This document shows positions 3 to 649 of a DNA stretch of 649 nt, one piece after another. Source of the stretch: Escherichia coli. GTDB taxonomy: Bacteria > Pseudomonadota > Gammaproteobacteria > Enterobacterales > Enterobacteriaceae. The stretch is from the NCBI RefSeq assembly GCF_003334305.1, contig NZ_QOWS01000072.1. One strand, written 5' to 3'. The notes below the pieces were generated by a model. The model saw only the letters and a program-made list of their open reading frames with translations. It was not told where the DNA came from and searched no databases. Both the position numbers and the translations under genes were made by a program. Each line of letters begins with the position of its first letter. Position 1 is the first letter of the stretch.

Positions 3-25
3 GGTAATGCTGCCAACTTACTGAT
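3..25 (+). repeat. IS1 left terminal inverted repeat (IRL), 23 bp
   Basis: GGTAATGCTGCCAACTTACTGAT; differs from the IRL of K-12-type IS1 as I recall it (GGTGATGCTGCCAACTTACTGAT) at one position (4th base G->A). The partner IRR is outside the window, so the inverted-repeat pairing cannot be shown here. Confidence 0.85.
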
Positions 26-40
26 TTAGTGTATGATGGT
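9..40 (+). promoter_or_regulatory. Probable insA promoter (pIRL) overlapping the IRL, which is also the InsA binding/autorepression region
   Basis: A -10-like hexamer TATGAT at 32..37 lies just upstream of the insA RBS and start; in IS1 the insA promoter is known to lie partly within IRL. The -35 element is not clearly identifiable by eye, so boundaries are approximate. Confidence 0.35.
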
Positions 41-46
41 GATTTT

Positions 47-52
47 AAGGTG
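47..52 (+). promoter_or_regulatory. Shine-Dalgarno sequence for insA
   Basis: AAGGTG at 47..52, 5 nt upstream of the GTG start codon at 58..60. Confidence 0.5.
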
Positions 53-57
53 CTTGC

Positions 58-333
58 GTGGCTTCCATTTCCATCAGATGTCCTTCCTGCTCCGCTACTG
101 AAGGCGTGGTGCGTAACGGCAAAAGCACTGCCGGACATCAGCGCTATCTCTGCTCTCATTGCCGTAAAACATGGCAACTACAGTTCACTTACACCGCCTC
201 TCAGCCCGGTAAGCACCAGAAAATCATTGATATGGCCATGAATGGCGTCGGATGTCGCGCCAGTGCACGCATTATGGGCGTTGGCCTCAACACGGTTTTA
301 CATCACTTAAAAAACTCAGGCCGCAGTCGGTAA
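58..333 (+). CDS. insA: IS1 InsA protein (91 aa): transposition inhibitor / transcriptional repressor and N-terminal DNA-binding part of the InsAB' transposase
   Basis: ORF 58..333 with GTG start and TAA stop at 331..333; translation [37 protein letters not shown]... carries a C-x2-C-x20-C-x2-C zinc-finger motif (C8, C11, C32, C35) and a C-terminal HTH-like segment ([30 protein letters not shown]). Near-identical to recalled InsA with about 7 substitutions (e.g. V4I, S7R, D15E, T52K). Confidence 0.93.
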
Positions 334-649
334 CCTCGCGCATACAACCGGGCAGTGATGTGATTGTCTGCGCTGAAATGGACGAACAGTGGGGCTACGT
401 CGGTGCTAAATCACGTCAGCGCTGGCTGTTTTACGCGTATGACAGGATACGGAGGACGGTTGTGGCGCACGTCTTCGGTGAACGCACTCTGGCCACACTG
501 GAGCGTCTTCTGAGCCTGCTGTCGGCCTTTGAGGTCGTGGTATAGATGACGGATGGCTGGCCGCTGTATGAATCACGCCTGAAGGGAAAGCTGCACGTTA
601 TCAGCAAGCGTTACACTCAGCGCATTGAGCGACATAATCTGAATCTGAG
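252..649 (+). pseudogene. insB: IS1 insB frame (transposase catalytic part), interrupted by an in-frame TAG at 543..545 and 3'-partial at the window edge
   Basis: ORF 252..545 ([64 protein letters not shown]...) matches recalled InsB ([27 protein letters not shown]...). It ends at TAG 543..545, where canonical IS1 has TGG (Trp) in the motif DVVIWMTDGW. The same frame then continues open over 546..647 as [34 protein letters not shown], matching canonical InsB. Classed as pseudogene only because of the internal stop; a sequencing error or suppression are alternatives. Confidence 0.7.
307..315 (+). promoter_or_regulatory. Programmed -1 ribosomal frameshift (slippery) site TTAAAAAAC linking insA to the insB frame
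   Basis: TTA-AAA-AAC in the insA frame (codons 307-309, 310-312, 313-315; A6 run 309..314 followed by C315) is the established IS1 A6C frameshift motif. The -1 frame reads CTT AAA AAA CTC (L K K L), which continues into the InsB-like frame. The insA stop (331..333) lies 16 nt downstream. Confidence 0.85.

Follow-up and report, generated by a model that had tools for sequence, protein, structure and literature searches.

Escherichia coli K-12 MG1655 carries six copies of IS1, named IS1A to IS1F, each 768 bp long in RefSeq. The K-12 copies of types 1–3 are at least ~98.8% identical to IS1A among themselves (PMC12903888), and IS1F is the type 4 IS1 of Umeda and Ohtsubo 1991, as that work is cited in PMC12903888. 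The role of PIS1, a promoter that overlaps the left inverted repeat (IRL), and its repression through InsA on the IRL are established IS1 biology, InsA being a known repressor of IS1 that binds the inverted repeats (PMC12428005). K-12 IS1F is immobile on its own (PMC12428005), and over-produced InsAB' mobilises it in trans, where it gave 44% of the insertions among the four non-consensus copies (PMC12903888). The cause of the immobility is called unknown in PMC12903888. Both of these 2025 papers deal with the immobility of K-12 IS1B, IS1C, IS1D and IS1F; their text contains neither 'amber' nor 'nonsense' nor a premature stop in IS1F insB, and the stop codons that they do mention concern other constructs.

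All six K-12 copies were aligned gap-free to positions 3–649 of the window (the whole 649-nt stretch of DNA analysed here), which correspond to positions 1–647 of the 768-bp element. IS1A and IS1E each match at 583/647 positions (90.11%; 64 mismatches for IS1A), IS1B and IS1C at 89.95%, IS1D at 89.64%, and IS1F at 645/647 (99.69%). With identities of 89.64–90.11%, the window falls outside the consensus type (IS1A–E), for which ~98.8% identity to IS1A or more is expected. Membership of the IS1F isoform was judged by near-identity to the K-12 MG1655 IS1F as the reference copy, and every feature tested assigns the window to the IS1 family and to this isoform. We consider it very probable that the window holds the left 647 bp of a 768-bp IS1F-isoform element that carries the amber codon of K-12 IS1F, a non-autonomous copy that would still make InsA and could be mobilised in trans.

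These values bear on an earlier, sequence-only reading of the same DNA, which had estimated about 10% nucleotide divergence from canonical IS1 and had placed the copy in one of the divergent isoform groups. The estimate agrees with the 64/647 mismatches to IS1A; identity to IS1A and IS1B (89.95–90.11%) stays far below the >99% at which that reading would have given up its reference, and the divergent group can be named as IS1F. Its further statement that the copy is not of the K-12 type is accurate with respect to IS1A–E (89.6–90.1%) but not with respect to IS1F, which is itself resident in K-12.

All features described below lie on the + strand of the window. Positions 1–2 (TC) are flanking DNA outside the element, the IS1A and IS1F alignments both beginning at position 3. 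The IRL, GGTAATGCTGCCAACTTACTGAT, occupies positions 3–25 and is identical to the IRL of K-12 IS1F (23/23); it matches that of IS1A at 22/23 positions, the sole difference lying at IRL position 4, where the window has A and IS1A has G (G4A). It thus has the form of an IS1-family terminal repeat, an imperfect repeat of ~23 bp that starts GGT(G/A)ATG. A consensus scan places a sigma-70-like, promoter-like site (CTGCCA-16 nt-TATGAT, 9/12 matches) at positions 10–37, where it overlaps the IRL and sits at the place of the insA promoter. In the list of open reading frames, insA is intact at positions 58–333, with a GTG start and 91 codons followed by TAA, and encodes the InsA repressor; the zinc ribbon of the protein (Pfam Zn_ribbon_InsA) is matched at residues 1–36 with an E-value of 2.5e-19 and its helix-turn-helix domain (HTH_Tnp_IS1) at residues 43–86 with an E-value of 4.6e-25.

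The insB frame, −1 relative to insA, spans positions 252–545 in the same list and ends prematurely after 97 aa; up to the stop, its protein is identical to that of the K-12 insB7 pseudogene. The slippery motif AAAAAAC (A6C) lies at positions 309–315, as in IS1A and IS1F, and would join insA to insB' by −1 programmed frameshifting. The window therefore shows the two consecutive reading frames in phases 0 and −1 and the A6C motif that characterise the IS1 family, frameshifting itself being predicted from these features. An Rfam scan of the window (E ≤ 1) gave no match, so that no curated RNA family covers the IS1 frameshift region. Past the stop, the remainder of the insB' frame (positions 546–649) translates up to ...RIERHNLNL, where it is cut by the window end. 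This end is IS position 647; the final 121 bp of the element, including the right inverted repeat (IRR), lie beyond it, so the completeness of the element cannot be judged from the window.

IS1A and IS1E, and likewise IS1B, IS1C and IS1D, share with the window the 768-bp IRL-insA-A6C-insB' layout and the Pfam domains, but differ from it in nucleotide sequence (89.6–90.1% identity) and at 7 InsA and 16 InsB residues, the stop included. The 64 differences from IS1A are scattered over the left-end leader, insA and insB, as the sequence-only reading had described: one lies in the 23-bp IRL, five fall at leader positions 24–55 of the element, insA holds 24, and the part of the insB frame beyond the insA stop holds 34. 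Those in the first 55 bp, six in number, are substitutions only. Relative to K-12 InsA1, the seven InsA changes are V4I, S7R, D15E, T52K, T69S, I80V and R82H; six of these had been listed correctly before, and the seventh had been given as T68S. Relative to the InsB of IS1A, the changes are P2S-P6T, D15G, S65R/L66I/K68R (SLRK to RIRR), M80L, G84E, M87L, P92A, D94E, I97V and W98*. The changes previously listed for InsB are all found, with the corrections that an M-to-L change occurs twice (M80L and M87L) and that P2S-P6T and W98* had been left out.

The K-12 IS1F (MG1655 4518472–4519239, adjoining fecI; insA7 and the insB7 pseudogene) has the same IRL as the window, the same amber at InsB codon 98 and 62 of the window's 64 differences from IS1A. 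The window and this copy differ at two positions. At position 158 the window has A and K-12 IS1F has C, giving His34 in InsA (as in IS1A) versus Pro34; at position 302 the window has A and K-12 IS1F has G, giving R82H in the window. The two InsA proteins accordingly differ at 2/91 residues (P34H and R82H relative to K-12 InsA7). We regard R82H as a minor allele within the isoform, because K-12 IS1F has R82. The A at position 302 is also present in the fec-linked IS1F copy of strain 503025, and the idea that R82H is private to copies at the antiporter locus described below was rejected on this ground. Pro34 of the K-12 protein sits in the second cysteine pair (C-S-x-C) of the zinc ribbon, where the window, IS1A and a Shigella copy all have His34; the K-12 copy is thus the more degraded of them at this site.

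The functionally decisive feature of the copy is an amber codon in the insB frame, common to the window and K-12 IS1F, which the sequence-only reading had overlooked. Comparison with the K-12 copies shows TAG at window positions 543–545 (IS positions 541–543) where IS1A–E have TGG; the change is W98* in InsB and affects residue 163 of the 232 residues of InsAB'. A conceptual InsAB' was constructed in silico as the −1 frameshift product, which for IS1A is 232 aa long. The corresponding product of the window ends after 162/232 aa, at about model position 62/131 of DDE_Tnp_IS1, and the window copy consequently lacks the uninterrupted transposase frame through the whole DDE domain that is expected of an autonomous IS. 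When the stop is read as tryptophan, InsAB' matches all three Pfam models: Zn_ribbon_InsA (PF03811) at residues 1–36, HTH_Tnp_IS1 (PF12759) at 43–86 and DDE_Tnp_IS1 (PF03400) at 102–197, the last match covering model positions 1–96 of 131. On the NCBIfam model NF033558 (IS1 family transposase; cut-off 100), the product with the stop read as tryptophan scores 224.6 bits and the stop-terminated 162-aa product 171.7 bits. We take D109, D166 and E191 to be the catalytic residues of InsAB', in which case the second aspartate and the glutamate fall after the stop; the assignment of these IS1 DDE residues reportedly stems from Ohta et al. 2002, which PMC12428005 cites. In RefSeq, K-12 insB7 is annotated as a pseudogene, copies that match the window carry the remark 'programmed frameshift; internal stop', and copies with one mismatch are named IS1-like element IS1F family transposase.

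Searches were made with 90-nt probes centred on this codon, for which a threshold of ≥99% identity amounts to an exact match (a single mismatch gives 98.9%). The TAG probe is exact in 1876 finished E. coli records, K-12 MG1655 among them, and its TGG version is exact in 2190 records; as both kinds of copy are found, the IS1F isoform exists in an intact and an amber form. The numerous TGG records would fit a different account, in which the window is an active Shigella-type IS1 isoform whose TAG either stems from faulty sequencing or assembly or undergoes efficient readthrough. Also in its favour, near-identical TGG copies (99.4–99.5%) with an intact 232-aa InsAB' are common on Shigella and E. 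coli plasmids. One of them, on plasmid pSB4_227 of Shigella boydii Sb227 (WP_094106546.1), is 99.4% identical over the window, with TGG and the full 232-aa InsAB'; it has the same isoform backbone as the window and also differs from it at window positions 10, 212 and 302. We nonetheless judge this account very improbable. The 1876 TAG records are independent, and the seven finished genomes that match the window at 100% are annotated with an 'internal stop', which together exclude an error. As for readthrough, its level at UAG without a suppressor is normally far lower than would be required for a frameshift product whose expression is very weak to begin with. Some full-length protein could arise through amber suppression, for example in a supE or supF host, or through readthrough at a low level.

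Relative to IS1A, dN/dS is 0.12 for insA and 0.10 for insB', and the divergence is mostly synonymous. The ~10% divergence from IS1A is old and built up under purifying selection (dN/dS ~0.1); the IS1F lineage was therefore functional during its evolution and acquired the stop later.

The amber-bearing IS1F copy represented by the window has kept its IRL, promoter-like site, insA and A6C motif intact, and its transposase frame is interrupted within the catalytic domain. Transcription would still proceed from the IRL promoter and yield the repressor InsA, which binds the inverted repeats. Active InsAB' would not be made, which would leave the copy non-autonomous, and its movement would be expected to depend on InsAB' provided in trans by an intact IS1 in the same cell, a reading with which the published behaviour of K-12 IS1F agrees. 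Otherwise, the copy would remain in place as a relic, inherited passively and available to homologous recombination as a substrate. The W98* codon that the window has in common with K-12 IS1F is the obvious candidate for the cause of IS1F immobility, which the 2025 K-12 mobility papers leave unexplained (PMC12428005, PMC12903888). The loss of activity could be due in part to several of the 16 InsB substitutions as well.

In the copies sampled, the amber allele occurs at three loci: fec-linked, at yedJ/hchA (one copy), and at a locus between an antiporter gene and IS600. The fec-linked insertion was seen in K-12 and in four other strains among the sampled copies. Such a distribution, together with the wide occurrence of the allele (1876 records), the intact insA, promoter region, IRL and A6C motif, and the known repression of IS1 by InsA (PMC12428005), could be read as a sign that the amber copy is kept as a useful domesticated regulator, its InsA and a 162-aa InsAB' fragment (zinc ribbon, helix-turn-helix and partial DDE domain) damping co-resident IS1. 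We find this highly unlikely. A single insertion, the fec-linked one, accounts for most of the amber copies sampled, so their prevalence is explained by common descent or by co-transfer with fec. P34 in the zinc-ribbon CxxC region of K-12 IS1F and the further changes in strain 503025 look like drift. It is conceivable, though rather unlikely, that the amber IS1F allele is a non-autonomous lineage that has spread to several loci by means of co-resident IS1 transposase, as a full-length parasite of the IS1 family, perhaps with some damping by InsA; a more symmetrical IRL and IRR might have helped such a spread.

The right flanks of the fec-linked IS1F differ between strains. In K-12 the element is followed by GACCATGTT... 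and then yjhU, and in the four other strains by TCCTCCCGAACT... and then remnants of IS3, IS5 or IS21, a difference that points to a rearrangement or deletion next to IS1F in one of the lineages.

The whole window is found at 100% identity in seven finished genomes, at one single locus, with the annotation 'internal stop'. These genomes include the ETEC strains ATCC 43896 and L3_E36 and isolates from the USA, Brazil, Bangladesh and an orangutan, and the element together with 300 bp on each side is identical in sequence in all seven. The order at the locus is Orn/Lys/Arg decarboxylase, basic amino acid/polyamine antiporter, IS1, 5'-truncated IS600 and C4-dicarboxylate transporter; in NZ_CP024278.1, for example, the IS1 lies at 2621761–2622528 and directly abuts the truncated IS600. 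K-12 IS1F stands at another chromosomal locus, and its 3' end differs from that of the element in the seven genomes, which is IS1A-like. In these genomes, IS positions 573–636 are IS1F-like at 8/8 informative sites and positions 648–750 IS1A-like at 9/9; over positions 648–768, identity is 99.2% with IS1A and 91.7% with IS1F, and the right end is IS1A-like (GGTGATGACTCCAACTTATTGAT), the IS1F-type IRR being GGTAATGACTCCAACTTACTGAT read inward. A search for a target-site duplication at this locus found none in the seven genomes (...GCAAATC / IS / TACAACTGG...), and the fec-linked and yedJ loci likewise have no duplication of the 8–9 bp made by the IS1 family. The missing duplications are consistent with later rearrangement.

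The chimera at the antiporter/IS600 locus is most simply explained if two copies, one of IS1F type and one of IS1A type, recombined and lost the intervening DNA. Whether the window itself comes from such a chimera, in which a left part of IS1F type and a right end of IS1A type were joined by homologous recombination and deletion of the DNA between them, and is thus part of a hybrid scar, is a question on which we see the chances as evenly balanced. That all seven exact-match genomes have this one locus, with its IS1A-like 3' end and no target-site duplication, speaks for it. The chimeric part, on the other hand, is wholly outside the window, and fec-linked, plain IS1F copies are only 1–4 bases from the window and have the same TC flank, that of strain 503025 also having A302. 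The first IS1A-like site lies one base beyond the window end at IS position 647, so chimerism is not assertable for the window. A chimeric origin is compatible with the identity of the window as an amber IS1F copy and adds to that explanation.

Elements of this kind are widespread. Some form of IS1 that matches the window is present in 4971/5426 complete E. coli genomes. A 73-nt isoform probe (window positions 222–294), which has no 28-mer in common with IS1A, was found in 4194/5426 of these genomes, at a median of 2 places per genome, and in 3135 plasmids, with Klebsiella (1787), Escherichia (663), Enterobacter (249), Shigella (144), Citrobacter (121) and Salmonella (85) as their genera. As a clean marker of the isoform this probe is valid only in part: it also matches copies whose annotation reads IS1A or IS1B family, which indicates that IS1 isoforms are mosaic and that the counts come from an imperfect marker. 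The sequence-only reading had held that isoform identity bears on host range and history of acquisition; with the IS1F isoform ubiquitous in Enterobacteriaceae, it carries little information on either, and the isoform alone is no pointer to an unusual host or acquisition history. The finding is in this sense already known, IS1F having been described in 1991 (as cited in PMC12903888), being annotated in K-12 and occurring in most E. coli genomes. For annotation, the copy should be described as an IS1F-type pseudogene copy whose insA is intact and whose insB' has an internal amber, and not as an active transposase.

Two smaller observations concern individual copies of the amber allele and their surroundings. 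In the fec-linked IS1F of strain E2865 (NZ_AP018808.1), A replaces C at the equivalent of window position 315, changing the slippery motif to AAAAAAA; this is potentially a second inactivating or frameshift-altering lesion in an already dead copy. The dinucleotide TC directly precedes the IRL at all three loci of the amber allele (...ATTTC at the fec-linked locus, ...CTCTTC at yedJ/hchA and ...CAAATC at antiporter/IS600), unlike the flank of K-12 IS1A, which ends in TA, and this common flank could reflect a target preference of IS1 or chance.
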